64,000 bases of DNA from Promethearchaeota archaeon (GCA_048940925.1 JBHLOC010000027.1:1-64000); one strand, 5' to 3'. Positions 44,761 to 61,261 are shown, numbered from the stretch's first letter. Numbers and translations: made by a program. Notes: generated from the letters alone by a model not told the origin.

Positions 44761-46146
44761 CTATTTGCTATTTTTGATAAATTTAATCATTTCCTCTGAA
44801 ATTTGATAGTTGGAAAGTACTAAATCTGCATATCCTTTCTCAGCAGCGAATTTAGGCATAGCATAAAGAATACTCGTTTGTTCAGATTCTGCGATTGTTT
44901 TTCCACCAACCTTTTTAATAGCATGTAATCCCTCAACGCCATCAGATCCCATTCCTGTTAGTAAAATTCCCAAACATCGATTCTTATAGAGTTTTGCTGC
45001 CGAAAAAAACAGGACATCAATAGAAGGCATACAAAAATTAACAGGTGAACCTTTTTTTAATTTAATACAAGGTGTTTTCTTTTCAACTGAAACTTCCATA
45101 TGCTTTTCTCCTGGAGCAATGTAACCTATTCCTGATTTAAGTATTTCTCCATGATTAGATACCTTAATCTTTAATTTACATTCTAAATCTAAATTTTCAG
45201 CGAAAGCATCTGTAAAATGAGAAGATAAGTGTTGCACTACTAAGATTGGAGCTGAAAAATCACTAGGAATATCTTTAAGAATAGTTGTAATTGTTCTAGG
45301 ACCACCCACACTGGCACCGATAACGATTATATTTGATATTAAGTTAACATTATTGTCGGAGGTAAATTCAGCAAAATTAGTTGATGTTAATTTGTGATCA
45401 GGAATTAAAGAGGTTGTTTTTAATGAACCTATATTCTCTAAAGTTGAGATTTTTTCAATATTATTTGGTATCGAGATAAGTTCTTGAGCTTTTTTTCGAT
45501 TTAAGTTCGATTTCCATTTTGAAATAGCATCTAATTTTGGTAAATTACCTTTTTTAGATTTTTCATTGAAAAATTCCTTTGGTTTTGCTTTAAAAGTAAA
45601 ATTATATTCATTTATCTTGTCAACTTCCTCAATAGGTTTTAATCGATTAAGATATTGACCAAAGTCAAAGATTTCATTAACAATTTCTTGTCTAATAGTA
45701 GTTTTTTTAGTTAAAGACTTTTTCTCTTTCCTAAAAATTCTTTTTATCTGTGATTGTGAAGCTAACAGAACCTTAGCAAGTAGCTCTTTTCGAAATCGTG
45801 GTAAATCTTTTGCTCCAATGCCTCCTGGTTTAATAATATAATCAAATGCTCCCATTAACAATGCTTGAACAGAAGAATCCAAGTTTTTTGGACTTATTGC
45901 TGAAAGTATAATTGTAGGCGTTGGATGGTCTTTCATAATAATTTTAAAAGCATCTAACCCATTCATCTTGGGCATAACTAAATCCAAAACTAAGACATCT
46001 GGTCTGTGTATTCTAATTAAATTAATAGTTTCTTTCCCATCTTTAGCAAAATCTACATTATTAATGAATTCATTTTTCTTGAGAATATCTGAGATACTCT
46101 TTCTTAAAAAAGCTGAATCATCGGCCACAAGAACATCAATATTCAA
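44761..46146 (-). CDS. cheB: Chemotaxis response regulator methylesterase CheB (long linker)
   Basis: REC domain (DD, DLVMP, KP) plus GASVGG, VQH, PSID, TGMGSDG, YAMP. Confidence 0.93.
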   Translation of the reverse strand: MNIDVLVADDSAFLRKSISDILKKNEFINNVDFAKDGKETINLIRIHRPDVLVLDLVMPKMNGLDAFKIIMKDHPTPTIILSAISPKNLDSSVQALLMGAFDYIIKPGGIGAKDLPRFRKELLAKVLLASQSQIKRIFRKEKKSLTKKTTIRQEIVNEIFDFGQYLNRLKPIEEVDKINEYNFTFKAKPKEFFNEKSKKGNLPKLDAISKWKSNLNRKKAQELISIPNNIEKISTLENIGSLKTTSLIPDHKLTSTNFAEFTSDNNVNLISNIIVIGASVGGPRTITTILKDIPSDFSAPILVVQHLSSHFTDAFAENLDLECKLKIKVSNHGEILKSGIGYIAPGEKHMEVSVEKKTPCIKLKKGSPVNFCMPSIDVLFFSAAKLYKNRCLGILLTGMGSDGVEGLHAIKKVGGKTIAESEQTSILYAMPKFAAEKGYADLVLSNYQISEEMIKFIKNSK

Positions 46147-46220
46147 TTAAGTCTCCCTTAAAACCATAATTAATTAATCCAATAAATAGTAGTGTAATGA
46201 AATTTATATCTTTCTTAAAG

Positions 46221-47171
46221 CTAAAATAAACTTGAAATAAGAAAAGTAAATAATTCATCAATTCCCTGTCCAGTGAGGGCAGATGTTTCAAAAAAGGGAA
46301 TATTATATTGTTTTGCTAAGTTTTGAGCTTTTAATTTAAAATTTCCGCGACTTTCAGCTAGATCTATTTTATTTCCTACAAGAACATGCGGAATAATTTT
46401 ATTTCCTAAATATGATTGTGATTCTTCAAACCAATCAGGTATTTTTTTTATGGTATCTATATTTGAATAATCAAATAACAATAAAACAGCATTTGAATAT
46501 TCATAGTAAAATCGTCGAATTTTGGCAAAATTCTTTAAACCACCTAAATCAAATAGGTATAATTTTAAATTGTAATCCTTTGAGATTTTTAATTTTTTCT
46601 CGAAAATTGTAATGCCAATAGTGGGGCTATAGATCTCGTTAAAAACACCCTTACAATACATCTCAGTTAACGTACTTTTACCTACTGTTTCAGATCCTAA
46701 AATTGTGATTGTTTTTACAATACTTTCATTAAATCTTCCGTTAGTTAAGATTAATTTTCCTTTTTCATTTAATTTTGGAATTTTCATTGCTGTCTCAATA
46801 TTATTTAAGATAAATGATATTTTCTGAGCAGTAATATAGACATATGGTATATATTTTTCAATATTTGAATAATGGTCTGCGATTAAGACAAAAATAGCAG
46901 GTGTTCTTCTACCCAGTTCCATATAAAAAAGTTGAAATTCATTAGTATCAAATGTTCCACTCCCAAACGAGGTTTCTGCATACCTCTTAATCTTACTTAT
47001 AGTTTGTTCTAAAATAGCCATAATAGCTCCAATTAATTCTTCATCAAATGCTTTTGTCGATTGACGCGCTATAATTAAACCGTCTAAATCTACAACTAAA
47101 GCTGCTAACAAATCTTGAATTTCATCTAACAAATTACCTAATAAATCTTCCAAAACTGTTAATTTAGACAT
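46221..47171 (-). CDS. Roadblock domain-Rab/Ras-like small GTPase fusion
   Basis: N-terminal LAALVVDLDGLIIA roadblock; G1 GSETVGKS, G2 PTIG, G3 DLGG, G4 NKID, G5 ETSAL. Confidence 0.88.
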   Translation of the reverse strand: MSKLTVLEDLLGNLLDEIQDLLAALVVDLDGLIIARQSTKAFDEELIGAIMAILEQTISKIKRYAETSFGSGTFDTNEFQLFYMELGRRTPAIFVLIADHYSNIEKYIPYVYITAQKISFILNNIETAMKIPKLNEKGKLILTNGRFNESIVKTITILGSETVGKSTLTEMYCKGVFNEIYSPTIGITIFEKKLKISKDYNLKLYLFDLGGLKNFAKIRRFYYEYSNAVLLLFDYSNIDTIKKIPDWFEESQSYLGNKIIPHVLVGNKIDLAESRGNFKLKAQNLAKQYNIPFFETSALTGQGIDELFTFLISSLF

Positions 47172-47247
47172 TTTTAATATTTTTTATTTCTCTTCTGTAA
47201 ATTCTTATTATTTTGATATTATCTCTTAAAATTTATACCTAAGATTA

Positions 47248-47931
47248 TTATAAATTCATACTGTATTTAATATTTAGAATTTCAAATAAATTCTTTAATA
47301 GATTCAAATTTGGTATAAGACAAATTACCCCGTTTAGTTTTATTTCTTTAACTTCCAACATTGTCTTAATTATTATAGAATAATCAGAAATTTGAGAATA
47401 TTTCGCTATAATGTAGTTTAGCATGGCATTTACATTATCAAGTGCAATCTGTGGAAAGGTGGGAATCAATTTAGTCGATAGTAAATCAGCTAAACTATTT
47501 GAATAATGACCAGCTAAAATACTTCCTATTTCTTTTATGATGCTGTGAGAAAATTCATCTAAATCGCTAAGTAGTTTTATTTTGTCAGCTGATAATTTTT
47601 CATATACCGTTAAATTATTTATTAAATTAATTATTGAATCCTTAGAGTAAACCTGAACTATTGTTAATTGAGATTCTTCATTAATATTTGAGATTATTCC
47701 AAATACATTATTTTTTTTGTTATTAAACAACTCAGGGATTTCCCAAAATGGAATGATATTTACTGATGTTAAAGATACTTCAACATTGTTATCTAGTAAT
47801 TTTGAAAGAGCTGTAATAGCATGCCCCGAACCTATATTTCCTAGCTCTTTTAATAAATCAAGTTGCTCTGGAGTTAGTTCTACATCTACATAATTCTTTA
47901 TATCATTTTTATTTTTTCTCATTTTTCTCAT
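47248..47931 (-). CDS. cheC: CheY-P phosphatase CheC
   Basis: DLLKELGNIGSGHAITALS; second site EIGSILAG. Confidence 0.88.
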   Translation of the reverse strand: MRKMRKNKNDIKNYVDVELTPEQLDLLKELGNIGSGHAITALSKLLDNNVEVSLTSVNIIPFWEIPELFNNKKNNVFGIISNINEESQLTIVQVYSKDSIINLINNLTVYEKLSADKIKLLSDLDEFSHSIIKEIGSILAGHYSNSLADLLSTKLIPTFPQIALDNVNAMLNYIIAKYSQISDYSIIIKTMLEVKEIKLNGVICLIPNLNLLKNLFEILNIKYSMNL

Positions 47932-47947
47932 TTTTTAGAAATTTTTA

Positions 47948-48487
47948 TTAAAGTTTTTTAAACTCACTTTCTCCGCTTGATCTTACTAAAACGGAATAAT
48001 TATGTGTGTTAAATATAATTACTCTTCCAGAGGAGCCACCTAAATCTTCATTTACAATTTTAATATCTGATTTTTTTAATTCTCTTTTTACGACTTCAAT
48101 ATTATTAGTGCCAATTATATTCTCATCTAAATCGAAAATTTTAGACCCTCCAACGATAATTGCTCTTATATTTTCAATTTTAGCTCCATGTGAAATCAGT
48201 TCATTCTTTAATAATTGTACTGACAGATCAGCATATTTATGAGGATAGTTTATTTTTTTCTTCGTATCTGCTTTTGGGAGTAAAATATGAGACATAGCAC
48301 CGACTTTATTATTCTTATCATACAGGATAAGAGCAATACAAGAACCTAATCCGTAAATTGAAATTTTAATATGCACATTAGATGATTTGTATTTACTATT
48401 GACTAGTGCATAGTGGCCTATTGGAAGGATAATTACACCATCTCTTCCAGTTTTTTCTATACGGCCAATTTGTTCTTCTTCACTCAC
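47948..48487 (-). CDS. cheD: Chemoreceptor glutamine deamidase CheD
   Basis: GLGSCI, HILLP, KYAD, GGSKIF, IG..N, EDLGG.SGR. Confidence 0.92.
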   Translation of the reverse strand: MSEEEQIGRIEKTGRDGVIILPIGHYALVNSKYKSSNVHIKISIYGLGSCIALILYDKNNKVGAMSHILLPKADTKKKINYPHKYADLSVQLLKNELISHGAKIENIRAIIVGGSKIFDLDENIIGTNNIEVVKRELKKSDIKIVNEDLGGSSGRVIIFNTHNYSVLVRSSGESEFKKL

Positions 48488-48513
48488 TTTTTAATATTCC
48501 TTTTCATAAATTA

Positions 48514-49653
48514 TTAATTATTCGTGTTTATTGTAAACTTAGAACTAAATTTCATCATATAATCTTTAATTTTATAATTGGGACATACTATTTGGGCAGC
48601 TCCTCTTTTTATTGCCGCTTTAGGCATACCATATACTACACAAGTTTGTTCTGCTTCAGCAATAGTTTTTCCTCCTTCATTTTTGATAGATTCAAGACCT
48701 GCAGCACCATCATCCCCCAATCCAGTTAAAAGGATCCCCAAAACTTGCTTTTTACATGTTTCTGCGGCTGACAAGAATAAAATATCAACAGATGGCATAC
48801 AGAAATTGACTGGTTCTCCTTTAAATATTTTAATATGTGGAGTATTGTTTCTCACAATTATTTTCATATGTTTTCCTCCAGGACTAAGATACGCTTTTCC
48901 AGGAATAATTTCTTCACCATTAACTGGTATTTTTACTTCGATCTTGCAAATATTATTTAATGATTTTGCAAGTTCTTTCATGAAAAAAGAATTTAAATGT
49001 TGAACAATAAGTATTGGGCAAGGAAAGTCTTTAGGTATATCTTTTAGAATTGATTTTAGCGTTCGAGGTCCACCAGTACTAGTTCCTATTACTATAATAT
49101 TAAGTTTGATTTTAGGTATTGATGGCTTACTTAAAACAGTTGATTTTGCTGAATCCAATGATACGCTAATCCTACTTGGATGATGAGTTGATTGTATTTC
49201 TGATTGAAGATCTACTGATTTTTTTATTAAATCTGTACGCTTTTCATATGTTTTTTTAATTTTAGCCGCATATAAAATACTTGAAATTAGTTTTTTTTTA
49301 AACTTCGGAAATTCTTCTTTCCAATATCCCTGTGGTTTTAAGATAAAATCGAATGCTCCTAAAAGTAGAGCTTGAACAGAATCATCTAACGATCGAGGAT
49401 TAAGTCCTGTAAATACAATTGTCGGAACGGGGTAATGTTCCGACAGAAATTTAAGGACAGAGATCCCATCAACTTCCGGCATTATAAGATCTAATAAAAG
49501 TACATCAGGATTATGTTTCCCAATTTTTTGAATTGCCTCTCGTCCATTTCGTGCAGTATCAACCACTTCGATATTTTGGTGAGATGAGATCATTTCTGTT
49601 ATTACTTTTCTTTGATAACTAGAATCTTCAGCAAGTATCACCTTAATTAACAT
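48514..49653 (-). CDS. cheB: Chemotaxis response regulator methylesterase CheB
   Basis: REC domain (DLIMP) plus GTSTGGP, VQH, PSVD, TGLGDDG, YGMP. Confidence 0.93.
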   Translation of the reverse strand: MLIKVILAEDSSYQRKVITEMISSHQNIEVVDTARNGREAIQKIGKHNPDVLLLDLIMPEVDGISVLKFLSEHYPVPTIVFTGLNPRSLDDSVQALLLGAFDFILKPQGYWKEEFPKFKKKLISSILYAAKIKKTYEKRTDLIKKSVDLQSEIQSTHHPSRISVSLDSAKSTVLSKPSIPKIKLNIIVIGTSTGGPRTLKSILKDIPKDFPCPILIVQHLNSFFMKELAKSLNNICKIEVKIPVNGEEIIPGKAYLSPGGKHMKIIVRNNTPHIKIFKGEPVNFCMPSVDILFLSAAETCKKQVLGILLTGLGDDGAAGLESIKNEGGKTIAEAEQTCVVYGMPKAAIKRGAAQIVCPNYKIKDYMMKFSSKFTINTNN

Positions 49654-49665
49654 TAGAATTTCACC

Positions 49666-50730
49666 TTATCCTGTCTTTAGATAGATTTGATTCCGAGAAT
49701 CAATTAATTTTAAAGATTTATGAGTATTAAATATAGATTCTGTTTTACCTAATATTAGCAAACCTCCAGTTGCTAACTCTTTTTCGATGATTTCTAAAAA
49801 TCTAATTCGTGCTTTTCGGCTAATATAAATTAGGAGATATCTACAAAAGATAATATCATATTTTATGGATTTCTTGTGACCTTTTGTAAGATCTTCTTCT
49901 ATAAATTCAACATAATTTTTAATCTTGTTACTAACTGAAAATTTATCTCGAAAATATCCGTGGATTTTAGTAAAATAATTAAGTATAAACAAATTTGAAA
50001 CTTCATTTAAAGCACTTTCATTATATATACCTATATTTGCTCTATTAAGTGCATCCTTATCTATATCTGAAGCAATAATTTTAAATTGGGGTAAATAAGA
50101 TATTTGTCTTTTTAAGTTATCTAAAACCATTGCTATTGAAAACGGTTCTTCACCAGATGCACAGGGACATGACCAAATATGTATAATATTATTAGAATCT
50201 GATTGTGTCCATACTTTTCTATAAATTGATGTTTTTTTGATAAATGATAAAGCTAGCTGAGAATTTGAAAATTTTATGTGTCTATATTTATCATCGTTTA
50301 TTGATGTATTTTTATATAAAACTTCTGTTTCTATTTTGTTGTTAGTTTTTCTTTTTGAATTCGGCTCCATATCACTTATTATAGCTTTTCTATCAAGATT
50401 TAAAGTTTTTAAGAAGAAGTTTTCAAATTGTTTAAATACTTCCCAATTTCTAAAGAAACAAGAATAATTAATATTAAAACTATCTAGAAATTTTTGAATT
50501 TCTAAGGGATTATCTTTTATATAATAATAATATGAATGAAGCGTGGAACAGTTAACACGGATCATTCGAGCTTTTATTCTACGCTTAACAAAGTTATCAC
50601 GATAATATCCAAAATCCAAATTTGTTTCATGACTTAGAAAATCAAGTAAAAGATTATAATAGTCTTCATCAAATGTAATATTTTCAATCCTTATCACATG
50701 AAACACTTTATTTTTCGAGAATTTTTTCAA
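49666..50730 (-). CDS. cheR: Chemotaxis methyltransferase CheR (with insertion)
   Basis: VKRRI..RM, FFRN, IWSCPCASGEEPFS, ASDID, DIIFCR.LLIY, LILGKTES. Confidence 0.9.
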   Translation of the reverse strand: MKKFSKNKVFHVIRIENITFDEDYYNLLLDFLSHETNLDFGYYRDNFVKRRIKARMIRVNCSTLHSYYYYIKDNPLEIQKFLDSFNINYSCFFRNWEVFKQFENFFLKTLNLDRKAIISDMEPNSKRKTNNKIETEVLYKNTSINDDKYRHIKFSNSQLALSFIKKTSIYRKVWTQSDSNNIIHIWSCPCASGEEPFSIAMVLDNLKRQISYLPQFKIIASDIDKDALNRANIGIYNESALNEVSNLFILNYFTKIHGYFRDKFSVSNKIKNYVEFIEEDLTKGHKKSIKYDIIFCRYLLIYISRKARIRFLEIIEKELATGGLLILGKTESIFNTHKSLKLIDSRNQIYLKTG

Positions 50731-51262
50731 TTTCAGTAAAGCGTTGTTGAATATGGTCCATAGTGTATTTAATATGTTGCTGCATTTCCTTAATTTCCGA
50801 TAAAATTTTTTTTATTTGAGATTTCTGTATTTTTGCTAAAAATCTTTCTCCTACAAGAGAAGATATTTGATGAGTTTTATCTATTGTTACACTTGGGATT
50901 TTGACTTCTGAAATTTCAGTCTGAGTTATATTATTTCTAGATTCTCCTGGATAACTCAAGTGAAATCTATTTTCTTTTATTTCTTGAAAAATAATATTAA
51001 ATTCAGAGGGTTCAATTCCTTGTTTAATAACTTCATATTTAAAATTATAGAATTTTTTTTTAGTTTTTAGCTTTCCTGCCCAATTCGCGGCCATATAACG
51101 GTGAAATAAACGTGAGTTACTACCCGACCAAATCCAGATTAATTTGAAGTCCTTATCAATAATTAAATAAACTCCATTAGGTTCAAACATCTTTTCAGGT
51201 TTCCCCTTTATTGTTTCGCCATCTACTTTAAAAATGTATTCAAAATACTCACTTTTTAACAT
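50708..51262 (-). CDS. Gelsolin-like domain protein with C-terminal coiled coil
   Basis: GVYLIIDKDFKLIWIWSGSNS...A..WA...YEVIKQGIEPSEF matches the gelsolin repeat consensus. Confidence 0.78.
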   Translation of the reverse strand: MLKSEYFEYIFKVDGETIKGKPEKMFEPNGVYLIIDKDFKLIWIWSGSNSRLFHRYMAANWAGKLKTKKKFYNFKYEVIKQGIEPSEFNIIFQEIKENRFHLSYPGESRNNITQTEISEVKIPSVTIDKTHQISSLVGERFLAKIQKSQIKKILSEIKEMQQHIKYTMDHIQQRFTEIEKILEK

Positions 51263-51356
51263 TTTTTAAATTTTAACCTCTATTCGATGTCTTTAATAAC
51301 CTTTAGAATCTAAAAAAGTACTCATAGTAGAAAAGTTTTGAATTTCGCAAAAAAAA

Positions 51357-53315
51357 TTAAGAGTAAAATTTTAAAAGTGCATCAAGTAATTCTTGTAGGG
51401 TATTAAGATTTGGAATGAATAAGAATGTTCCTTGAACTTTAATATCAGTGATAATTACGTTTGTGGTGATTACTAGCGATAATTTTCTAAGCAATCCAAT
51501 TTCTTCTTTTAATATGCTAAATAATTGCTGTCCAGTATCAACTGACATGTCTGGAGGCTCTGTCATAAGCCGTATTCCAAGTAGATCACCTATAGCACTA
51601 ACATAATGACTTCCGAGAATATGTCCTAATTCGGAAAGAGCACTTCTATAAAGTTCTGGATAATCATCAGCTTTATCAATTTTCTTCCTCAAATCGATCT
51701 TCTTTTTATCTTTATCATCAACTATTATTGATGTAATATCAATTGAATCTTTTACATTGAATATCGTAAGTACTGTAGCTCTTGTTTTCCCAATAACGTT
51801 ACTCCATGCGACTAATAATTTTTCATTCTTTTTACTTATCTTTTGAGCATATTCATCTAATTCAACCATCTCTACTGATGGTATATTTATATCAACTCTT
51901 TTATTAATCATCTGAGCTAATGCATTTGCTGCGTTTCCAGCTCCAATATTTCCAACTTCTTGTAAGGCATCTCTTTGAAGTTCCGTAAGCACTATTGAAC
52001 TAACATCTAATTTATCAGCTGATTTCTCAGACTTATCTTCCATAAATGCTATTTCATGATGAATACCCAATTTATTGAAAAAAGATTTTAATGTTTCAAG
52101 GTCTGGTATAAAGAAGAAGAAACCTTGCAATTGTAATTCAGAGACTTTTATAGACGTTTTAATTATTATCATATATTCAGCTAATGATTTTAATTCTTGA
52201 GATAGAAATTCCCCTAATTCTGCAGTATTACTCATAGCAAATTCTGGTATATCAATCATAATTTTTGTCCCTAATAAATCTGCTAAAGCAGAAGCATAAT
52301 GCCCTGCCATTATGTTTCCCATTTCTGTTATTGTTGAAATAGCAAATTCATCAAGGTCCTTTTTAGACTTAACTTTATTAGGATCTATTTTTGATTGATT
52401 TCCTGCTAACGTTGCTATTAGATTCATTAAGGGTTTCATTTCAAAAATATTGAGAATAGTAGATTGGGAAGGTTTGTCTATATGACAAAAAATACCGCAT
52501 ACTCGTTCATTAGAATTCCCAAATTGCATTGATAATTTATTTAGAGATACAATTCCAACATCAGTTAAGGTCACATCTATTTTTTTCTTTATGAGTCGAG
52601 ATAGTGCTGTAACTGCATTTCCAGTTCCAATATTTCCAATCTCTTGAAGTATATCTTTTTGATCATCAGTTAAGACAATTTTTTTCTCGGAAGTTGAAGT
52701 TTTCTTCTTGGTAATTTTCACTTTTTTAGGTGTAATAACAGTTGATTCTATGTCATGAATCACTTGTTTTTTAGGTATCACTTTTGGGCGTTCCAGAATC
52801 TTAGGTTTTAGAATATTTTTCTCTACTTGTATTTCGAAAGATTTAATATAGGGTTGGATTAAAGCATCTAAATCTAGCAAGATAAGTGGTTCGTCTTGAA
52901 ATATCCCTGTTAGTTTTATAAATTTAAAATCTATGTTTGTTTTTACAATCGTTCCTTGTGCTTTAAAAATTGAAATTGGAAACTCTCTCACACCAATTAC
53001 AGAATCAACTAATAAAGCAATTTTTAAATTTTCCCATTCTAAGAGTAGAATACGTGATTTTTCATCTAAAGCATATTCTATATCATTACTATAAATATTG
53101 TGTTTAAGTGAGATAATTGAATAAATATCTCCTCTGATATTTATAATCCCTACAATTGATTTATCTGCTAACGGTACTGGAACTATTTTTTCTCCAGGTA
53201 CAAAAATCTCTTTAACCTTTTCAACCTCAATAAGATATTTTTCATCTTGTACCTGTATTATAACAGTTGATATATTTTCTTCAAATTCTATTTTTTCATA
53301 TTCACTATTTAACAT
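51357..53315 (-). CDS. CheW-CheC-CheC fusion protein
   Basis: CheW (VPVPLA...GIINIRGDI...ALLVDSV) then two CheC domains (EIGNIGTG/EMGNIMAG; EVGNIGAG/ELGHILGS). Confidence 0.88.
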   Translation of the reverse strand: MLNSEYEKIEFEENISTVIIQVQDEKYLIEVEKVKEIFVPGEKIVPVPLADKSIVGIINIRGDIYSIISLKHNIYSNDIEYALDEKSRILLLEWENLKIALLVDSVIGVREFPISIFKAQGTIVKTNIDFKFIKLTGIFQDEPLILLDLDALIQPYIKSFEIQVEKNILKPKILERPKVIPKKQVIHDIESTVITPKKVKITKKKTSTSEKKIVLTDDQKDILQEIGNIGTGNAVTALSRLIKKKIDVTLTDVGIVSLNKLSMQFGNSNERVCGIFCHIDKPSQSTILNIFEMKPLMNLIATLAGNQSKIDPNKVKSKKDLDEFAISTITEMGNIMAGHYASALADLLGTKIMIDIPEFAMSNTAELGEFLSQELKSLAEYMIIIKTSIKVSELQLQGFFFFIPDLETLKSFFNKLGIHHEIAFMEDKSEKSADKLDVSSIVLTELQRDALQEVGNIGAGNAANALAQMINKRVDINIPSVEMVELDEYAQKISKKNEKLLVAWSNVIGKTRATVLTIFNVKDSIDITSIIVDDKDKKKIDLRKKIDKADDYPELYRSALSELGHILGSHYVSAIGDLLGIRLMTEPPDMSVDTGQQLFSILKEEIGLLRKLSLVITTNVIITDIKVQGTFLFIPNLNTLQELLDALLKFYS

Positions 53316-53351
53316 TATAATATCCTCTGTTTAACTCATTACAAAATTTTT

Positions 53352-54191
53352 TTATTTTATCATTATACCTTTCCAAATTAATTCTACATCAGTTTCATCT
53401 TCAGTTGCTCCAATAAAGAAATCTGATTGTTTAAAGATTAATATTTGTCCTCCATTTGAATACTTGTAGACATAGTTTAGTAAATCATCCATACTTGTAT
53501 AATTAAATCCTGCAAGTTTTAATTCTGAATTATCTACAATTATTAGATCTTCTTTATTAAAAACGCGATTTTCTTCTATCCATTCAATCCATAATTCTGG
53601 AGTTATTTCAGTGTTAATTATCTTATAACTTTCATCTAATGGTATATTTCGAAAAGATTTATTAGCAGCTATTATAATCCTATGTGGTATAGTATTCTGT
53701 TTTTTTGCGAATTCTGCCATATCTTTTAATGATTGATTAAAATTATCTAATTCGAGAGTATCATGACAAGAAATGAAAATTGTTTCATTTTCTTCAGTTT
53801 CTAGTATAAAATCAAAAAATTTAGCAGAATTGTTATTTTGGTTTACCTTCATAGATTTAATAGTTATACCTAAATAATATTTAATATATTGATAAAATCG
53901 CCATTTAACAGCTAATCTATGATTTATTTCTCTACTAATAAATATCTGGAACAATGTTTTTAGGTCAATTTCATTTAATTTTGATATATCCGCCAATTTA
54001 CCTTTATCTTTGCCAATTTCGAGAAATTTATCATTGGTAGTTGATTTTGAGTTTTTAACAGGTTTCGTTTTAATTTCATCTAAGAATTTGTTTAATTCAT
54101 TATAAGTGAATTGTGGCAAGATTTGATCAACCAAATATGAAACATACTTCTTCGATTTATCATCCAACGTTTCAAAAAACTGTAAATTCAT
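53352..54191 (-). CDS. Hypothetical protein in che operon
   Basis: 279 aa, GGAGG RBS, co-oriented within the operon. Confidence 0.65.
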   Translation of the reverse strand: MNLQFFETLDDKSKKYVSYLVDQILPQFTYNELNKFLDEIKTKPVKNSKSTTNDKFLEIGKDKGKLADISKLNEIDLKTLFQIFISREINHRLAVKWRFYQYIKYYLGITIKSMKVNQNNNSAKFFDFILETEENETIFISCHDTLELDNFNQSLKDMAEFAKKQNTIPHRIIIAANKSFRNIPLDESYKIINTEITPELWIEWIEENRVFNKEDLIIVDNSELKLAGFNYTSMDDLLNYVYKYSNGGQILIFKQSDFFIGATEDETDVELIWKGIMIK

Positions 54192-54246
54192 TCTATTTCC
54201 TCCTATAATTTTTCTTTTTTCGATTTAATTATAATTTTGTTCTGAA

Positions 54247-56262
54247 TTATCCAATAAAAAAGGATTCTAACTCTGAATATTTTACATCTTTTCCGGTAAT
54301 ATTTTTTAGATAATACATTACTTCCTTTTCTTGAAAGGGTAATAAAGTTTCAATTGTGAAGAATATTTTACGTTCTCCAGATTTATCTGCTTTGCTTAAC
54401 TTATGATCGATATTTGAAGAGACAAGTTCAAATGAGTCTGGGAAAGAATCAGTTAAATCAACATTATTAAGTTTAATATTTGAACCATTTCTTGCAGTAA
54501 TATAAATTGCAAATTCATTGCTAGTCCTCCCTGGAAATATTTCCTTTCCAATCATTAGCTTACGACGTTTATGAGTAATTTTTAGTTTAGAGGCATCTTT
54601 CATATCTAAATTGGTGGTAATTATATAATACTCATTAGATTTTACATCTAAATATTTAGGATAATATGTCTGAACATCCAATGGAAATTTATAATCTTTA
54701 TTGGGATCAGGAGTAATAGCGTTAAGTGAATATCGGACCTCTAAAAAGTCATCAACATTTATCAATGATTTACTATTATAATTCTTCAAATTAACTCTTA
54801 GTTCTAAAAGATGTTCACTAGATGGATCAATATCATCTGGATTAACATTTATTATAAAGTCTTCAAATTTTACTTCTCCTGAAGAATTAAATAATTTGTA
54901 TTTTGAAATCTCTTTTGAAGGCAAAAAATCTTCCGGTATTCTCTCTTGGACAATTATTCCTTTTACCGGAACTGCACCCATGTTCTTTATTACAATTTTT
55001 ACATCAATTTCAGATTGCTCATATGATTTTACCTCTTTCTCTGAAAGTTCCTTTTTTATTAAAACACTTACGGTTCTAAAGAGAGTATCATCAAAATGAG
55101 CAGTAATCAAACAGTTTTTTTCAACCTTATAATCTACAGAATATTCTACTTTCCTTGAAAATGAAGGCTCTTTTTCATCTACATAATCAAATTTTTGTGT
55201 TATATAATTTTCTTGGGGATGAATTATCAATTTTTCACCAGAACCATTAAAATTCAAGCTTAATAGAGTATTTTTCTTATTCTTATCTAAAATTAAAATT
55301 GATTTCATTATCATCTTAAAATCACTATGATTTTCAAAATAGAGAGAGCAATCCCAATGATTAGGAGAGTGATCTTTCTCCATTTTTTTTATTGCATGCA
55401 ATGCATGAGAATATGCTGAAAAGCGTTCAATTTCTACTTCAGATAAAGTTTGATTCTTCAAATTAAATGATAATTCAATTTTCCCTGTTCTTATATTCTC
55501 TCTCTTTTTTGGAAAAATCTTGCTTATTATTGATATTTCTCTTTTTTCTCCAGGATTCAAATTATTAATAGAACATTCAACTGTGTTGCTTGTAATAATA
55601 AAATCCTTATTATCATTACCCTCAAATTCTAAATCATAAAGATATTTAGAAATATACTTTTTTAGGGTTATGTTTTCTAAAAATGACGTTGAAACATTTT
55701 CTACAAAAATTGAGAACTTAATCTTATTTTCTTTACCAAGTAAAAGAATTTGATGTTTTTGATTTCCATCATTAATAAAGAGAGATCCATCTGGGCTATC
55801 TCCAAATGATTTAATATCCTCATTTAAGTTCTCAATATTTTCCTCTATTTTTATTAAATCAGGGAGCATTTCTGAATTTACCATTTCATATTTCAAAATT
55901 TTATTTGAATTTGGTTCAAAGATACCTAAGTTTACATCTTTTTCTGAGTTTTTATCATCAAATTGTGTGCCTGAAAATTGTAAAAATGCATCCCAAATTC
56001 TATCTTTAAGTGAATTATTATAAATTATTATGTTACCATATCCAGTTATAGAAGATCTCTTCTTATCATATTGATATTTATATTCTAAAAATTCTTCATT
56101 AGCAATCAATATTTCTGAGATTGAGCTTATTACATTTTTTCCTATTTTTAAATCTCTTTTACTAGTTTCTATTACTTTTCCTGTTTCCCTTATTGGCATA
56201 CCAAGGAAATTGACTCCAATTTCAGTTTTTAACTCATCTTGGTTAACTTTTTTAAAACCCAT
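54247..56262 (-). CDS. Cytoplasmic multi-beta-sandwich protein (putative mu-homology domain plus DUF11-like Ig domains)
   Basis: 671 aa, no signal peptide; repeated I.N......I.V.(E/D).IP..F units. Confidence 0.6.
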   Translation of the reverse strand: MGFKKVNQDELKTEIGVNFLGMPIRETGKVIETSKRDLKIGKNVISSISEILIANEEFLEYKYQYDKKRSSITGYGNIIIYNNSLKDRIWDAFLQFSGTQFDDKNSEKDVNLGIFEPNSNKILKYEMVNSEMLPDLIKIEENIENLNEDIKSFGDSPDGSLFINDGNQKHQILLLGKENKIKFSIFVENVSTSFLENITLKKYISKYLYDLEFEGNDNKDFIITSNTVECSINNLNPGEKREISIISKIFPKKRENIRTGKIELSFNLKNQTLSEVEIERFSAYSHALHAIKKMEKDHSPNHWDCSLYFENHSDFKMIMKSILILDKNKKNTLLSLNFNGSGEKLIIHPQENYITQKFDYVDEKEPSFSRKVEYSVDYKVEKNCLITAHFDDTLFRTVSVLIKKELSEKEVKSYEQSEIDVKIVIKNMGAVPVKGIIVQERIPEDFLPSKEISKYKLFNSSGEVKFEDFIINVNPDDIDPSSEHLLELRVNLKNYNSKSLINVDDFLEVRYSLNAITPDPNKDYKFPLDVQTYYPKYLDVKSNEYYIITTNLDMKDASKLKITHKRRKLMIGKEIFPGRTSNEFAIYITARNGSNIKLNNVDLTDSFPDSFELVSSNIDHKLSKADKSGERKIFFTIETLLPFQEKEVMYYLKNITGKDVKYSELESFFIG

Positions 56263-56331
56263 TTCAATTTTCCTCCAAATTTTATTTAAACAGCAAATTT
56301 TTTCTTATTTTTAAAAAATATTTAATTAACT

Positions 56332-58368
56332 TTATTGTGAAATTTCACCTTCTAGTAATTGTTTTGATATGATATTGAGCACATCAAGGATCAAACAAAT
56401 TTCACCAGAACCAGTGATAGCAGATCCTAAAATATTTCGAGAATCTGAATAGCTTGATTTAAATGGTTTAACTACTAAGTCTAGTTGTTGAAGTTGTTTA
56501 TCTGCTACTAAAACTGCCGAATTCTCATTATCTTTTTGACACCATACAGCAACTTTCTTATATGAATTAGTTTCATTTATATCAACCATTTGTAAGTGTT
56601 GATCCAAATGAATAAGAGGGAGTAATTTTGAATTAATTTTGTAATATTGTATCCCTTCATTGTATTCGACTAAATTTGGATTGAAAAAGTATATTTGCTT
56701 GATATTTTCAATGGGTATAGCAAATAAATCTTCTGAAATTTGAAGTAATTGAGCTCTCAAAATAGCCCTTGTAAATGGAACAATCAATGTAAATTTAGTC
56801 CCAACGTCTTTTTGTGAGGTGATGAGTAAATCTCCTCCTAATTCTTTTATTTTTTCAGCAACAATAGCTAATCCTATCCCTCTACCTGATATAATATCAG
56901 CATCTGAGAGAGTCGAAAAACCAGACATTAGTATATATTTATTCAATTCATCCGGTGTTAGCTCTTCGATTTGATTAGCGTCAAAATATCTCTTATTACG
57001 GATTTTTTGTTTTATTTTATCATAATTTATACCTGCACCATCATCTTCTATCTCTATGTGAATAGAACCTGCTTTCCTATATGTTTTTATTCTTAAAATT
57101 CCAAGTTCATTTTTACCTTTCCTTTTCCTTTCTTCTGGTGTTTCTATCCCATGGTAAATAGCATTTCTAATAAGATGAACTAACGGGGAATTTAATTCCT
57201 CTAATATTTTTCTATCAATTTCAACATTAGTGCCTTGTAGAACTAATTTAATTTGTTTACCTGTTTCATTCGCAACATCTCGTACAAATCGTTTATATTT
57301 TCTAAATGTAGATTCTACACGCACTAATTTTAATCTAAATAGTATTTCTTGAATGTCGAGATAGGGTTTATCCATTTTATCAAAAAGTCTACCAATAACG
57401 CGATCTTGTTTTTCTTTTAATAATTGACTAATTTGATTTTTTAATATTACCAGTTCTCCAAAATAATTCATTAATTCCTCTAAATATTCAATATTAACTT
57501 TTACACTTGTTATTTTAGTCCCATCCTCAGAATAGTCTTCAACTATTTGAGAGACCCTCTCTACTTCTTCATCGATTAAATCTTCCTCAAAATCTTGCTC
57601 TTTATCCCATTTCTCTTTTAGATTGTTAATTGTGCTTTTAAATTCCTCAGGATTTAAAATTGTAATCACAATACTTTCAATTTCTAATATTTCATCTAAA
57701 ATATGTGATATTTGTTGTTTTTGTTGGTCACTAATAAAATATATCTCGAATTCATTCTTCAAAATTGCTCTCTCTAATGATTCTGGGGCAGGAGTTGTCC
57801 AACAAATCTTACCCCTCTCATTTAATGCCCTAAAAATAATAAACAATCTTACTTTCTTAAATACACAAGTTTCCTCCAATCGAATATAAATTTTATATGG
57901 TTTGTTTTGTCTATTACTGAGAATTTCTGTAATTTCTTCAAGAGTTATTGGTTTAATAAATGTAATATCATAACTATCTGTATCAAAACTCTCAAAACTC
58001 CTTTTTATCTCTTCTAAAAATTTAGTGTCAATATCTTTTAAATCTCCTTTTTTGACCTTCTTTAAAACATTTTTAAGGACATCAAGACTCTCAAATAACA
58101 TATCTATAAAGTCAGTTCGTTTTCCAATTGAAACTTTATTGTCTTTCGCATTTTCTAAAAAAGATTCAAAATGATGACAGAACTTTGATAAATTTTCAAA
58201 ACCCGCCATAGCAGTAAGACCTTTTAGAGTATGGAATGTGAAAAAAAGTTCCTGAATTGGTTTAGGATTTTCCGTATTTTCTTCTAATTTAAGAATTTCA
58301 TCCTCAGTTTTTTGAATAAGATCCTCTGCTTCACTAATAAAAAGCTTAATATCGTCATATGAGGCCAT
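56332..58368 (-). CDS. cheA: Chemotaxis histidine kinase CheA
   Basis: P1 FHTLKG, P2, P3 LMNYFGELVI, P4 HLIRNAIYHGIE/DDGAG/GFST/SGRGIGL, P5. Confidence 0.96.
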   Translation of the reverse strand: MASYDDIKLFISEAEDLIQKTEDEILKLEENTENPKPIQELFFTFHTLKGLTAMAGFENLSKFCHHFESFLENAKDNKVSIGKRTDFIDMLFESLDVLKNVLKKVKKGDLKDIDTKFLEEIKRSFESFDTDSYDITFIKPITLEEITEILSNRQNKPYKIYIRLEETCVFKKVRLFIIFRALNERGKICWTTPAPESLERAILKNEFEIYFISDQQKQQISHILDEILEIESIVITILNPEEFKSTINNLKEKWDKEQDFEEDLIDEEVERVSQIVEDYSEDGTKITSVKVNIEYLEELMNYFGELVILKNQISQLLKEKQDRVIGRLFDKMDKPYLDIQEILFRLKLVRVESTFRKYKRFVRDVANETGKQIKLVLQGTNVEIDRKILEELNSPLVHLIRNAIYHGIETPEERKRKGKNELGILRIKTYRKAGSIHIEIEDDGAGINYDKIKQKIRNKRYFDANQIEELTPDELNKYILMSGFSTLSDADIISGRGIGLAIVAEKIKELGGDLLITSQKDVGTKFTLIVPFTRAILRAQLLQISEDLFAIPIENIKQIYFFNPNLVEYNEGIQYYKINSKLLPLIHLDQHLQMVDINETNSYKKVAVWCQKDNENSAVLVADKQLQQLDLVVKPFKSSYSDSRNILGSAITGSGEICLILDVLNIISKQLLEGEISQ

Positions 58369-58395
58369 AAAATCACCATAATGTTTAGTTTATGA

Positions 58396-58791
58396 TTATT
58401 TCTTATCGATTTTTTTATTTTTCAGTATGCGATCCATGACCTCTAAAATTTGTTCAGTCTTGAAGGGTTTTTGAATAAAATCTTTTGCCCCTTTTTTCGC
58501 TGCTTCAAGCACTAAAGCTTCTTGTCCTAAGGCTGATACCACAACTATCAAAGCTTTAGGATTAATCTTTAGAATCTCTTCTGTCGCCTCAATACCGCCT
58601 TTTTTAGGCATAACCAAATCCATAGTAACTAAATCTGGGTTTAGTTTCTTGTATAAAGATATTGCTTCGACACCGTTTGAAGCTTCACCAATTATTTCGA
58701 CCTTCTCGACTTTACTTATAATATTTTTAAGCATATTTCTTGTGAAGGCTGCATCGTCAACTATAAGGACACGTTTCTTTTCATTTGTCAT
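58396..58791 (-). CDS. cheY: Chemotaxis response regulator CheY
   Basis: VDDAAF, PDLVTMDLVMP, SALGQ, GAKDFIQKPF. Confidence 0.93.
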   Translation of the reverse strand: MTNEKKRVLIVDDAAFTRNMLKNIISKVEKVEIIGEASNGVEAISLYKKLNPDLVTMDLVMPKKGGIEATEEILKINPKALIVVVSALGQEALVLEAAKKGAKDFIQKPFKTEQILEVMDRILKNKKIDKK

Positions 58792-58858
58792 ATTTTCAAC
58801 TCCAATTTGTTTTTGTTTAAAATTTTTTAATATTTTTTTTTATTTTTTAGATTTAATT

Positions 58859-59392
58859 TTATGTTAGAGATGACATTTCTTGTTGAATTTTAAATTTTTC
58901 AACCTCACTCAATACTTTGCTTAAATCAAGCATAATTTTGGGTCGATCTTCGAAGTTTATAATACCTTTGATATATTCCATAGCAACACTAGTCTGAAAG
59001 ATAGGACTTAAATCAACAATTTCATTCGCATCAATGTGATCTATATTCATAATACGATCCACATAAAATCCGACTAAAGTATTCTCAACTTTTAGAATTA
59101 TTATAAATTTCTTACTTGCACTAAATACTTCTTCTGAAGAGGATTTTTTTGCGCTATACAAAACATATTCATTCAAGTCCAATTTCTTTTTTAAATTGAC
59201 TACATGAATGATTTCTCCTCTGTAATTATAGATCCCATCTATATAATCTAAACTTTTAGGCAATTTTCGTATTTGTCCCGCTTGTATTATTTCTTTTACA
59301 TCAACAAGGTCAATTACAAATTGTTCCCATCCAATTTGGAATATAATTATAGAAATTTGATTTCTATCTTTGAAATCTTTGCCTTGAATCAT
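58859..59392 (-). CDS. cheW: Chemotaxis coupling protein CheW
   Basis: VKEII, LP...YIDGIYNYRGEII.VVNL, GFYVDRI, YIKGII. Confidence 0.92.
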   Translation of the reverse strand: MIQGKDFKDRNQISIIIFQIGWEQFVIDLVDVKEIIQAGQIRKLPKSLDYIDGIYNYRGEIIHVVNLKKKLDLNEYVLYSAKKSSSEEVFSASKKFIIILKVENTLVGFYVDRIMNIDHIDANEIVDLSPIFQTSVAMEYIKGIINFEDRPKIMLDLSKVLSEVEKFKIQQEMSSLT

Positions 59393-59411
59393 ATTCTACA
59401 TACCCTTTTTC

Positions 59412-60233
59412 TTATATTATAAAATATTGGTTAATTATTTCTTCAAAATTAGAAAATGGTGTTATATCACCATTGAAATTTTTTAAAAGATCTTTATAAC
59501 TGAATAAAAATTCATCTGCTAAGAGATACATATATCTTTGAATTAAAAAATTCATTTTTTCCACTAAGAAAGCAAATATCACATGGTTTTTAGTAATAAC
59601 ATAGAATTGTTGATTTCCAAAATTAATTTCTTTGAGTTTTGCCCCAGTTTCTTCCCCAATGATCGTATTCGAGAATGATAATAAGGCAGAGATAAACCCT
59701 CCGATATGTACCTCATGATCCTGTATATTTGAACGCTTTTTATTTATCATTGAAACAAATGGACTCCCTGTGGACCCAATAATAAAAATAGCAATAACTC
59801 CCTCTGTTTTAGGTATCTCAATTGCCGAATTAAATTCATATATTATATTATTTAGTGATTCATGGGATTGAAATTTCTTGTTTATATCTTTTGATAAGAA
59901 ATATAATTGTGAGAAATTTACTGAATTTTCTTTTTTTTCCATATAAATTATAACTAATATATCATGATTAGAATGTTCAAAATAATGAAGGAAGATTGTC
60001 ATATCATTGAGAGGAATTATTGAGTTTCCTTGTTTTTTGGATATTATCTCTTTCTTATAAAGTTCCATAATATTCTGAACCAATGGAATACCTATTCCTT
60101 TCTGAAAAAGTACTTTGAAACTTTCATTAATATTATTTTCTGAAATCCTAACCAAACCTATGCCCAAAATTTGCATTAATCTGGTGTTTTCTTTAGAATT
60201 ATGAAAGTTTTCCATAATCATCATTAACTTCAT
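59412..60233 (-). CDS. Longin-like domain protein, first gene of the che operon
   Basis: C-terminal IFIIGSTGSPF...IGGFISALLSFS...LKEINFG...IFAFLV...F...Y pattern typical of archaeal longin domains. Confidence 0.65.
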   Translation of the reverse strand: MKLMMIMENFHNSKENTRLMQILGIGLVRISENNINESFKVLFQKGIGIPLVQNIMELYKKEIISKKQGNSIIPLNDMTIFLHYFEHSNHDILVIIYMEKKENSVNFSQLYFLSKDINKKFQSHESLNNIIYEFNSAIEIPKTEGVIAIFIIGSTGSPFVSMINKKRSNIQDHEVHIGGFISALLSFSNTIIGEETGAKLKEINFGNQQFYVITKNHVIFAFLVEKMNFLIQRYMYLLADEFLFSYKDLLKNFNGDITPFSNFEEIINQYFII

Positions 60234-60580: not shown

Positions 60581-61261
60581 GTGGAAGAAATTTTGACTTT
60601 TCCAAATAAAATAATTTCAAATGCTGACCATAATTTTAAAGAAATTATAGTTTATTGTCCTAAATGTAAAATTAGTAAGAATTTGAATATACCCATTAAA
60701 ATCATTAATCAAAGTAAACAACTAACTATAATTTCAATACCTTCAAGATTAAATTGTGAGCATAGTTTTCAAGCTTTTATTGATAAAAACTTCAAGGTTA
60801 GAGGTTATCAATTAGTAGATTTTGAATTTTCAAAAATAGAACTCTATGAAAGCACTTCAGATATTTTGGATAGGAAAAAATACGAAAAAAATGAAGCAAC
60901 CGAATTCACATCTATGTCAATTTTTCAGGAAATTATAAAACTTCTTAGAAATTGTGTTGATGATAAGGAAGTAGTTGGTAGCGGCATATTCACCCTAGAA
61001 GGAAAAGTACTATATTCTTCATTGCCACAAACTACTTTATTTAATACAATTCGAGAATTCGAAGTAAGAAGTGAGAGAAACTTAGTTAGTGTTAAAAAAA
61101 TGTATCTTGAACTTGAGAATGCTGAAAAATTTATTTCCAAATTTATGGAAATTAAGGGAGCAAAATTTAATTTAGTGTTAATGTTCTCTTTTCGCACCAA
61201 ATTTGGAATGGGAAATTTACACTTGCGTGATTTATTAAGAAATATAGAAGCTTTAAATTGA
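60581..61261 (+). CDS. Zn-ribbon plus roadblock/profilin-like domain protein
   Basis: CPKC...CEH.FQAFIDKNFKVRGYQ N-domain; VVGSGIFTLEGKVLYSSL C-domain. Confidence 0.6.
   Translation: MEEILTFPNKIISNADHNFKEIIVYCPKCKISKNLNIPIKIINQSKQLTIISIPSRLNCEHSFQAFIDKNFKVRGYQLVDFEFSKIELYESTSDILDRKKYEKNEATEFTSMSIFQEIIKLLRNCVDDKEVVGSGIFTLEGKVLYSSLPQTTLFNTIREFEVRSERNLVSVKKMYLELENAEKFISKFMEIKGAKFNLVLMFSFRTKFGMGNLHLRDLLRNIEALN

Follow-up and report, generated by a model that had tools for sequence, protein, structure and literature searches.

What does a chemosensory system control when its genes are interleaved with genes of eukaryotic character and its genome encodes no recognizable motor? This question is raised by an operon from Promethearchaeota archaeon, a Loki-type Asgard archaeon, which was analyzed within a stretch of 64,000 nucleotides (GCA_048940925.1, JBHLOC010000027.1:1-64000; hereafter the window). 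The window lies on contig C86 of a genome bin of 4.8 Mb and 90 contigs (marker completeness 100%, contamination 8.4%, G+C ~28%). On its minus strand, from 60233 to 44761, we found exactly 14 open reading frames (ORFs), all co-oriented, which encode a complete Che set together with the non-Che genes g01, g05, g06, g08 and g13. We propose, as the best explanation, that the 14 genes constitute one conserved chemosensory unit into which lineage-specific genes have been built. We are reasonably confident that this gene set is a functional unit and that its output is neither an archaellum nor a pilus. More tentatively, based on gene neighbourhood and domain identity, we suggest that phosphorylated CheY (CheY-P) may act on a longin/roadblock-GTPase switch and on a gelsolin and thereby bias actin protrusions. 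The genes, in operon order and followed by a divergently transcribed neighbor, are as follows (E-values refer to Pfam matches).

59412..60233, minus strand: g01, predicted double-longin protein of 273 residues, first gene of the operon (AlphaFold2 (AF2) model and structure searches)
58859..59392, minus strand: CheW (PF01584, 3e-25)
58396..58791, minus strand: CheY, a single REC domain (PF00072, 7e-26)
56332..58368, minus strand: CheA (Hpt, P2, H-kinase_dim, HATPase_c and CheW domains)
54247..56262, minus strand: g05, DUF11 multi-beta-sandwich protein of 671 residues (DUF11 in orthologues)
53352..54191, minus strand: g06, orphan of 279 residues with a predicted PD-(D/E)xK nuclease-like core (AF2 model)
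51357..53315, minus strand: CheW-CheC-CheC fusion of 652 residues (CheW 4e-21; CheC 2e-40 over three stretches; CheX 8e-10)
50708..51262, minus strand: g08, gelsolin domain with PGxSR motif and C-terminal helix, 184 residues (orthologue profile)
49666..50730, minus strand: CheR (CheR 2e-40, CheR_N 4e-11; start codon uncertain)
48514..49653, minus strand: CheB, REC and methylesterase (CheB_methylest 9e-59, REC 2e-20)
47948..48487, minus strand: CheD (PF03975, 6e-24)
47248..47931, minus strand: CheC (PF04509, 2e-14)
46221..47171, minus strand: g13, roadblock-like N-terminus and Rab-like small GTPase, 316 residues (Ras 1e-33; Robl_LC7 2e-3, weak)
44761..46146, minus strand: second CheB (Pfam)
60581..61261, plus strand: u1, Zn-ribbon (CPxC...CxH) protein of 226 residues, divergent from the operon (synteny and alignment)

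The number, order and orientation of these genes had been described in an original prediction made from the sequence alone, and the ORF listing agreed with it. The Che identities were confirmed by Pfam, with CheA, CheW, CheY, CheB, CheR, CheC and CheD, the archaeal Che core, all above cut-off. The genes are tightly spaced, with gaps, in gene order, of 19, 67, 27, 69, 55, 36, 94, -23, 12, 26, 16, 76 and 74 nucleotides. The negative value corresponds to a predicted overlap of 23 nucleotides between the gelsolin gene and cheR, which stands if cheR starts at the first TTG and gives way to a gap of 1 nucleotide if it starts at the in-frame GTG at 50706; g08 and cheR abut under either start. The window's CheA is the only one in its genome, which has four genes for methyl-accepting chemotaxis proteins (MCPs). 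The phospho-acceptor pocket of CheY is intact (D12, D13, D58, S86 and K108), and its alpha4-beta5-alpha5 face, i.e. the output face, is invariant across 25 orthologues, a pattern that fits a conserved partner. Between the REC and methylesterase domains of the second CheB (44761-46146) we observed a Lys/Asn-rich low-complexity linker of ~160 residues. Downstream of the operon lies a convergent gene for elongation factor 2 (EF-2); because it is kept in the same position in congeners, with 77-84% identity, the contig is native to the genus.

Within the family, 44 of 134 genomes had an orthologue of CheA, and two other families of the class had it as well (49-79% identity). Synteny was examined by mapping the window's proteins onto the ORFs of 40 fetched loci. 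The core block g01-CheW-CheY-CheA-g05-g06-CheW/CheC2-g08 recurred in 10 genera belonging to 3 families; g05 and g06 were present in all 10 genera, g08 in 9 and g01 in 8. Protein identity within the block was 40-75% (40-55% across the three families). The surroundings differed: the window's genus has EF-2, other loci have an A-type ATPase operon or an MCP gene, and the adaptation genes varied. In some genera the MCP gene is directly upstream of g01, which then separates it from cheW. The eukaryote-like genes are therefore kept beside che genes across genera while the flanks change, which leaves the original prediction unrefuted on this point. The closed 3.3 Mb genome G189, of the window's genus, is informative in this regard, since a break after g06 has separated the CheW-CheC fusion from it and divided the cluster in two (loci L008 and L045). 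One part, at 356 kb, consists of CheY-CheA-g05-g06, with neither g01 nor CheW seen upstream of CheY; the other, at 1.44 Mb, consists of CheW/CheC-g08-CheR-CheB-CheD-CheC-g13-CheB-EF2. Thus, after the split g08 and g13 remained with the adaptation genes cheR, cheB, cheD and cheC.

The usual archaeal outputs were then sought genome-wide. CheF (PF04283) was found neither in the window's genome nor in any of 135 genomes of the family, with control genomes positive, and in 1 of 400 genomes of the phylum. Archaellin (PF01917) was not detected in the window's genome, nor above cut-off in the 135 family genomes, with controls again positive. A platform protein of the T2SSF/ArlJ type (PF00482) was also missing from the window's genome (controls positive); T2SSF was found in 2 of the 135 family genomes, both without CheA, so that no CheA-bearing genome has T2SSF/ArlJ. 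An archaellum that would account for the output, the alternative considered in the original prediction, thus found no support in this genome or in its CheA-bearing relatives. Since CheF, archaellin and platform protein are lacking in these genomes, we propose that the readers of CheY-P would be proteins built into the operon, in place of a rotary or pilus motor.

One such protein is g08. On its own it scored below the Pfam threshold for Gelsolin (16.3 bits against a cut-off of 21; E 0.0087). However, a profile of 21 g08 orthologues matched Asgard gelsolin 7c2f_B (1.9e-7), 2DGel3 (~2e-5) and villin and CapG (~1e-4) in PDB, with the match spanning residues 23-89, and in this form the gelsolin-like label held. 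After this domain the alignment shows PGxSR as an invariant motif, then a linker that varies, and finally a C-terminal helix of ~40 residues that is again conserved. Judged from this profile, we consider g08 a real gelsolin-homology domain protein, which may bind actin. The window's genome encodes 5 members of the actin family, two of which are strongly eukaryote-like (430-441 bits), and additional gelsolins. Full-length g08 orthologues (E < 1e-44) occurred in 38 family genomes, all 38 with CheA, and nearly always either on the contig that carries CheA or, where the cluster is broken, on one of its contig fragments. The ~90 CheA-negative genomes of the family yielded no g08 orthologue, and weaker paralogues sit elsewhere. 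Fused forms of g08 longer than 350 residues were not found, which is weak evidence, and searches of the window's genome with our own hidden Markov models revealed neither gelsolin-longin nor REC-longin fusions. In genomes G151 and G163 g08 is immediately followed by an A-type ATP synthase operon in the same orientation (loci L021 and L023). Paralogues of g08 (~180 residues, gelsolin plus C-terminal helix; Pfam Gelsolin 26 bits, 6e-6) form another conserved cluster (L046-L049), which is present also in genomes without CheA. This cluster (e.g. L047:5033-11619) encodes a Roadblock/LC7 protein of 142 residues, a protein of 312 residues with no assigned function, the gelsolin, a FIST sensor, LuxE and LuxC, and it is a second instance of a gelsolin adjoining a roadblock protein and a sensory domain.

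The second candidate, g13, is a Ras-family GTPase as had been predicted (1e-33). Its G domain best matched Rab39B, Rab30, Rab21, Rab23 and a Thorarchaeota Rab in PDB (~1e-32); the 60 matches listed were all of Rab/Ras type (1e-28 to 1e-32), with no MglA among them. The G1-G5 boxes are present (GSETVGKS, PTIG, DLGG, NKID and ETSA). In switch II (46536-46550), DLGGL replaces DxxGQ, and the catalytic Gln is missing from 14 of 14 orthologues, which have L, I, F, A or K at this position. Hydrolysis may therefore be slow, or the residue may be contributed by a partner; a partner-supplied residue for GTP hydrolysis is known from Rap/RapGAP. The C-terminus ends in LF and has no prenylation Cys. An orthologue of g13 was located inside the che cluster in 13 fetched loci. 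Two loci of one genus also have a gene for a hybrid PAS-HisKA-HATPase-REC kinase after the GTPase gene on the same strand (L011:13790-15871 and L022:4077-6137).

The first gene of the operon, g01, had been called longin-like. No Pfam match to its sequence was obtained, and the support came from its predicted structure. The AF2 model (pLDDT 80) has two beta-beta-alpha-beta-beta-beta-alpha-alpha domains, at residues 24-137 and 146-270. Foldseek ranked multi-longin RabGEF subunits first (CPLANE and Mon1-Ccz1), followed by LAMTOR. In an exhaustive structural search, Z scores of 10-12.5 were obtained to VAMP7, Sec22, TRAPP and AP sigma/mu longins and to a Lokiarchaeal longin, and the best 50 structural matches were all longin or roadblock folds. 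Fits to VAMP7, Sec22, sedlin and AP sigma had root-mean-square deviations of 2.6-3.1 Å across 115-127 residues, and comparison with MglB and MglC gave Z 9.3-9.8. We therefore predict that g01 consists of two longin domains. Longin domains of the g01 type were found elsewhere in the window's genome (G000) fused to GTPases and to a u1-type domain. Two adjacent genes on contig C41 (G000:C41:103668-105858) combine an N-terminal longin of the g01 domain-2 type with a divergent P-loop GTPase (weak Arf/Roc matches), and on contig C20 (G000:C20:35351-36109) a g01-type longin domain is fused to a u1-type C-domain. Several genera retain the gene for u1 itself, a Zn-ribbon protein with a conserved C-domain, next to the operon; it is present twice in locus L024 and has three close paralogues in the window's genome (contigs C22, C82 and C39). 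Also, contig C7 of this genome carries, within ~20 kb, an MCP gene (67331-67678), the closest g01 paralogue (78397-79020; E 7e-34) and a u1 paralogue (88278-88868); an actin gene lies on the same contig at 31527-32636. The C-domain of u1 is possibly roadblock-like, and g01 and u1 may regulate the g13 GTPase.

The remaining built-in proteins, g05 and g06, are of a different kind. DUF11 was detected in 22 of 22 g05 orthologues, at ~175-260 and 585-650, indicating at least two DUF11 beta-sandwich domains; neither a signal peptide nor a membrane segment was seen when the g05 sequence was inspected by eye. Of the earlier label, a mu-homology/Ig-like protein, the beta-sandwich (DUF11/Ig-like) half was supported. 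The mu-homology half was not supported, as PF00928 (Adap_comp_sub) reached 25.4 bits against a threshold of 31.6 in 1 of 22 orthologues, on the same residues as DUF11, and did not match the window's own g05. A resemblance of g05 residues 403-510 to archaeal bundling protein X (9rhp and 9sj2) was likewise not significant (E ~0.08-0.15), and a literature search on that protein returned nothing. No match to g06 was found in Pfam or among PDB sequences. Structural comparison of its AF2 model (pLDDT 78) matched residues 90-207 to Card1, Can2 and restriction enzymes with Z no higher than 7.8. Foldseek gave nothing at E <=0.001, and in a structure-atlas search the matches to nuclease-like clusters (DUF234, NucS and Mrr) did not exceed TM 0.42. 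A conserved D...(D/E)xK triad was not seen among the invariant residues of g06; the model suggests that the core is probably PD-(D/E)xK nuclease-like and non-catalytic.

The g06 family is tiny (62 cluster representatives among 1.84 billion proteins), and distant relatives were in che clusters on all 3 long metagenome contigs examined. These belong to a second cluster layout, MCP-CheW-CheY-CheB-CheA-CheD-DUF11 protein-g06 relative-CheW/CheC fusion-CheR (L031, L042, L030 and L051-L053), in which the DUF11 protein has 757-1048 residues. Such distant clusters included, g05 always adjoins g06. Because the g05-g06-CheW/CheC triad is kept in both cluster types, it is the widest signature of Loki-type Che systems. 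No g01 or g08 homologue was found in the fetched loci of the second type. These clusters are followed by ORFs of 150-611 residues without Pfam match, which may represent alternative outputs. When the g08, g01 and g13 profiles were compared by hhalign with the unassigned ORFs of L031 and with the unassigned ORFs of the g08-paralogue cluster, no match was found.

With these components the suggested route from CheY-P to actin can be stated more fully. Asgard cells are known to crawl by actin-dependent protrusions (PMC13716822), chemoreceptor arrays have been seen in L. ossiferum (PMC9834061), and the Frz pathway, acting on MglA/MglB in Myxococcus, is a precedent for wiring a Che system to a GTPase (PMC10329633). 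CheY-P would arise at the receptor array, where tethered CheC phosphatases could keep it local. Its most likely reader would be the longin/roadblock and small-GTPase switch, in the manner of Frz on MglA/MglB, and this switch, together with gelsolin, might bias the sites at which actin-filled protrusions grow or retract. In this scheme g01, g08 and g13 are candidates for the steering of actin-based crawling, and both the protein contacts within the pathway and any effect on movement are conjectural. A stricter form, in which CheY-P directly controls gelsolin and/or the Rab-like GTPase and so steers eukaryote-style actin crawling, is unlikely in our estimate. A complex prediction for CheY and g08, both supplied as alignments, gave an ipSAE of 0.02 against a mark of 0.32 and weighs neither way. 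In the original prediction of a Che-to-actin/GTPase system, the functional tie and the non-archaellum output were well supported, and the routing of CheY-P to actin or membrane is suggested by where the genes lie and which domains they encode.

Several observations weigh against this route. The N-terminus of g13, predicted to be a roadblock domain, scored 18.1 bits against PF03259 (cut-off 23), and its best PDB profile match, the roadblock protein CvnB5, had E 0.57; this part of the roadblock-GTPase assignment is only weakly supported. Similarly, the three best PDB matches of the u1 C-domain were MglB, and they were not significant (E ~0.7-1). Clusters can also do without g13: no orthologue was found in G207 and G153, that of G191 is located elsewhere, and those of G151 and G163 lie ~14 kb downstream, past the ATPase operon, on the same contig and strand (L021 and L023). 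Because each genome has 30-50 small GTPase genes, a neighboring GTPase by itself means little; one such gene in 15 kb would not be rare by chance, and the evidence against chance is conservation at the orthologue level and not the single locus. In addition, a closed genome of the same order (G138; 6,035,313 bp; probably L. ossiferum, the species whose crawling depends on Lokiactin, PMC13716822) lacks g06 and has no close relative of g08. Finally, neither gelsolin nor GTPase is among the accessories most widely linked to che genes; these accessories are g05, g06 and the CheW-CheC fusion. As g05 and g06 occur also in the cluster type without g01 and g08, the primary reader of CheY-P may be one of these two proteins.

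This last point leads to a reading in which g05, g06, the CheW-CheC-CheC fusion and perhaps g01 are array parts or CheF-like adaptors, and gelsolin and GTPase are merely co-expressed with them. The retention of the g05-g06-CheW/CheC triad in two cluster types, some without g01 or g08 homologues, speaks for it, as do the small size of the g06 family with its confinement to che clusters on the three long contigs, the position of g01 between MCP gene and cheW in other genera, and the dispensability of g13. However, within the family the tie of g08 to the cluster is no less strict than that of g05 and g06, and g08 stayed with che genes after the rearrangement in G189; moreover, no other effector is evident, motor and pilus genes being absent. 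We regard this reading as possible, if somewhat doubtful.

Alternatively, the output might not be motility at all, and the Rab-like GTPase and longins might control membrane remodelling, display of surface proteins or syntrophic cell-cell contact. Many bacterial Che-like systems govern functions other than motility, which favors this view. Longin and Rab-like proteins regulate membrane identity and trafficking in eukaryotes, and the fold of g01 matches longins of TRAPP, AP, SNARE and RabGEF proteins. Also, a hybrid PAS-HK-REC kinase follows the GTPase in some genera, and cell-cell communication has been suggested previously (PMC9834061). On the other hand, the full adaptation set (CheR, two CheB, CheD and CheC) is typical of gradient sensing, and gelsolin points to actin, on which Asgard protrusions and crawling depend (PMC13716822). 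On balance, we think an output of this kind improbable. That the eukaryote-like genes are in the operon by descent or chance, without a functional tie to chemosensing, is very hard to credit. In favor of this view, paralogues of GTPases, longins and gelsolins abound in these genomes, and part of the synteny is inherited, since only related genomes were compared. Against it, the core persists at 40-55% identity across the 3 families amid changing flanks, g08 orthologues co-occur strictly with CheA, and in roughly two thirds of the family genomes the whole block was lost or gained together.

If the route from CheY-P to actin is correct, the link between gradient sensing and a eukaryote-type cytoskeleton predates the eukaryotes themselves, and a hybrid pathway of prokaryotic chemosensing and actin crawling would have been possible in the archaeal ancestor of eukaryotes. 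The operon supplies a small, matched set of candidates, namely one CheY, a gelsolin, a double-longin protein, a Rab-like GTPase and two orphans, and it provides an unusual example of an Asgard small GTPase whose gene shares a locus with candidate regulators and an input signal. We found no description of this operon in a literature search that left out most subscription journals. Che genes and receptor arrays have been noted in Loki-type archaea without an obvious motor (PMC9834061), and a 2026 paper on Asgard crawling does not mention chemotaxis (PMC13716822).

Among known systems, the closest analogue is Frz-MglA/MglB/RomR-RomX of Myxococcus xanthus (PMC10329633; bioRxiv 10.1101/137695). In the Frz pathway, MCP, CheA, CheW, REC outputs, CheR and CheB direct surface motility through a polarity module with the Ras-like GTPase MglA and its roadblock GAP MglB, with no flagellar switch. 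The likeness, as far as the genes alone go, is that the window's che genes are encoded with a Ras-superfamily GTPase, a double-longin protein and a possible roadblock protein. In contrast to MglA, the GTPase is Rab-like, fused to a roadblock-like domain and devoid of the catalytic Gln. In Myxococcus, frz and mgl form separate loci; in the window the regulators lie inside the che operon itself, which also includes a gelsolin. The presumed machinery is eukaryote-type actin and not Agl-Glt or type IV pili.

Euryarchaeal chemotaxis through CheF and ArlCDE (PMC9680633) uses the same Che core and CheC/CheD set, and the CheY pocket is intact in the window. Unlike that system, the window's genome lacks CheF, archaellin and ArlJ, non-Che genes are built into the operon, and CheC is fused to CheW. 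The gelsolin can be compared with the characterized Asgard gelsolins ProGel, 1DGel and 2DGel (PMC7444086, PMC9433394). With these g08 shares a gelsolin-homology core, a WxWxG strand and a long helix, but it forms a distinct orthologue group with an invariant PGxSR and a C-terminal helix and occurs only inside che clusters. Finally, the roadblock-GTPase layout of g13 and the longin-GTPase paralogues in the window's genome resemble the Asgard roadblock/longin-GTPase "Rag-like" fusions (PMC10933270). For MK-D1 it has been pointed out that genes for GTPases do not as a rule share operons with those for roadblock or longin proteins, which prevents partners from being matched (PMC10933270); at the window's locus, by contrast, the genes for one GTPase, one double-longin protein and one possible roadblock protein have stayed beside a signalling input.

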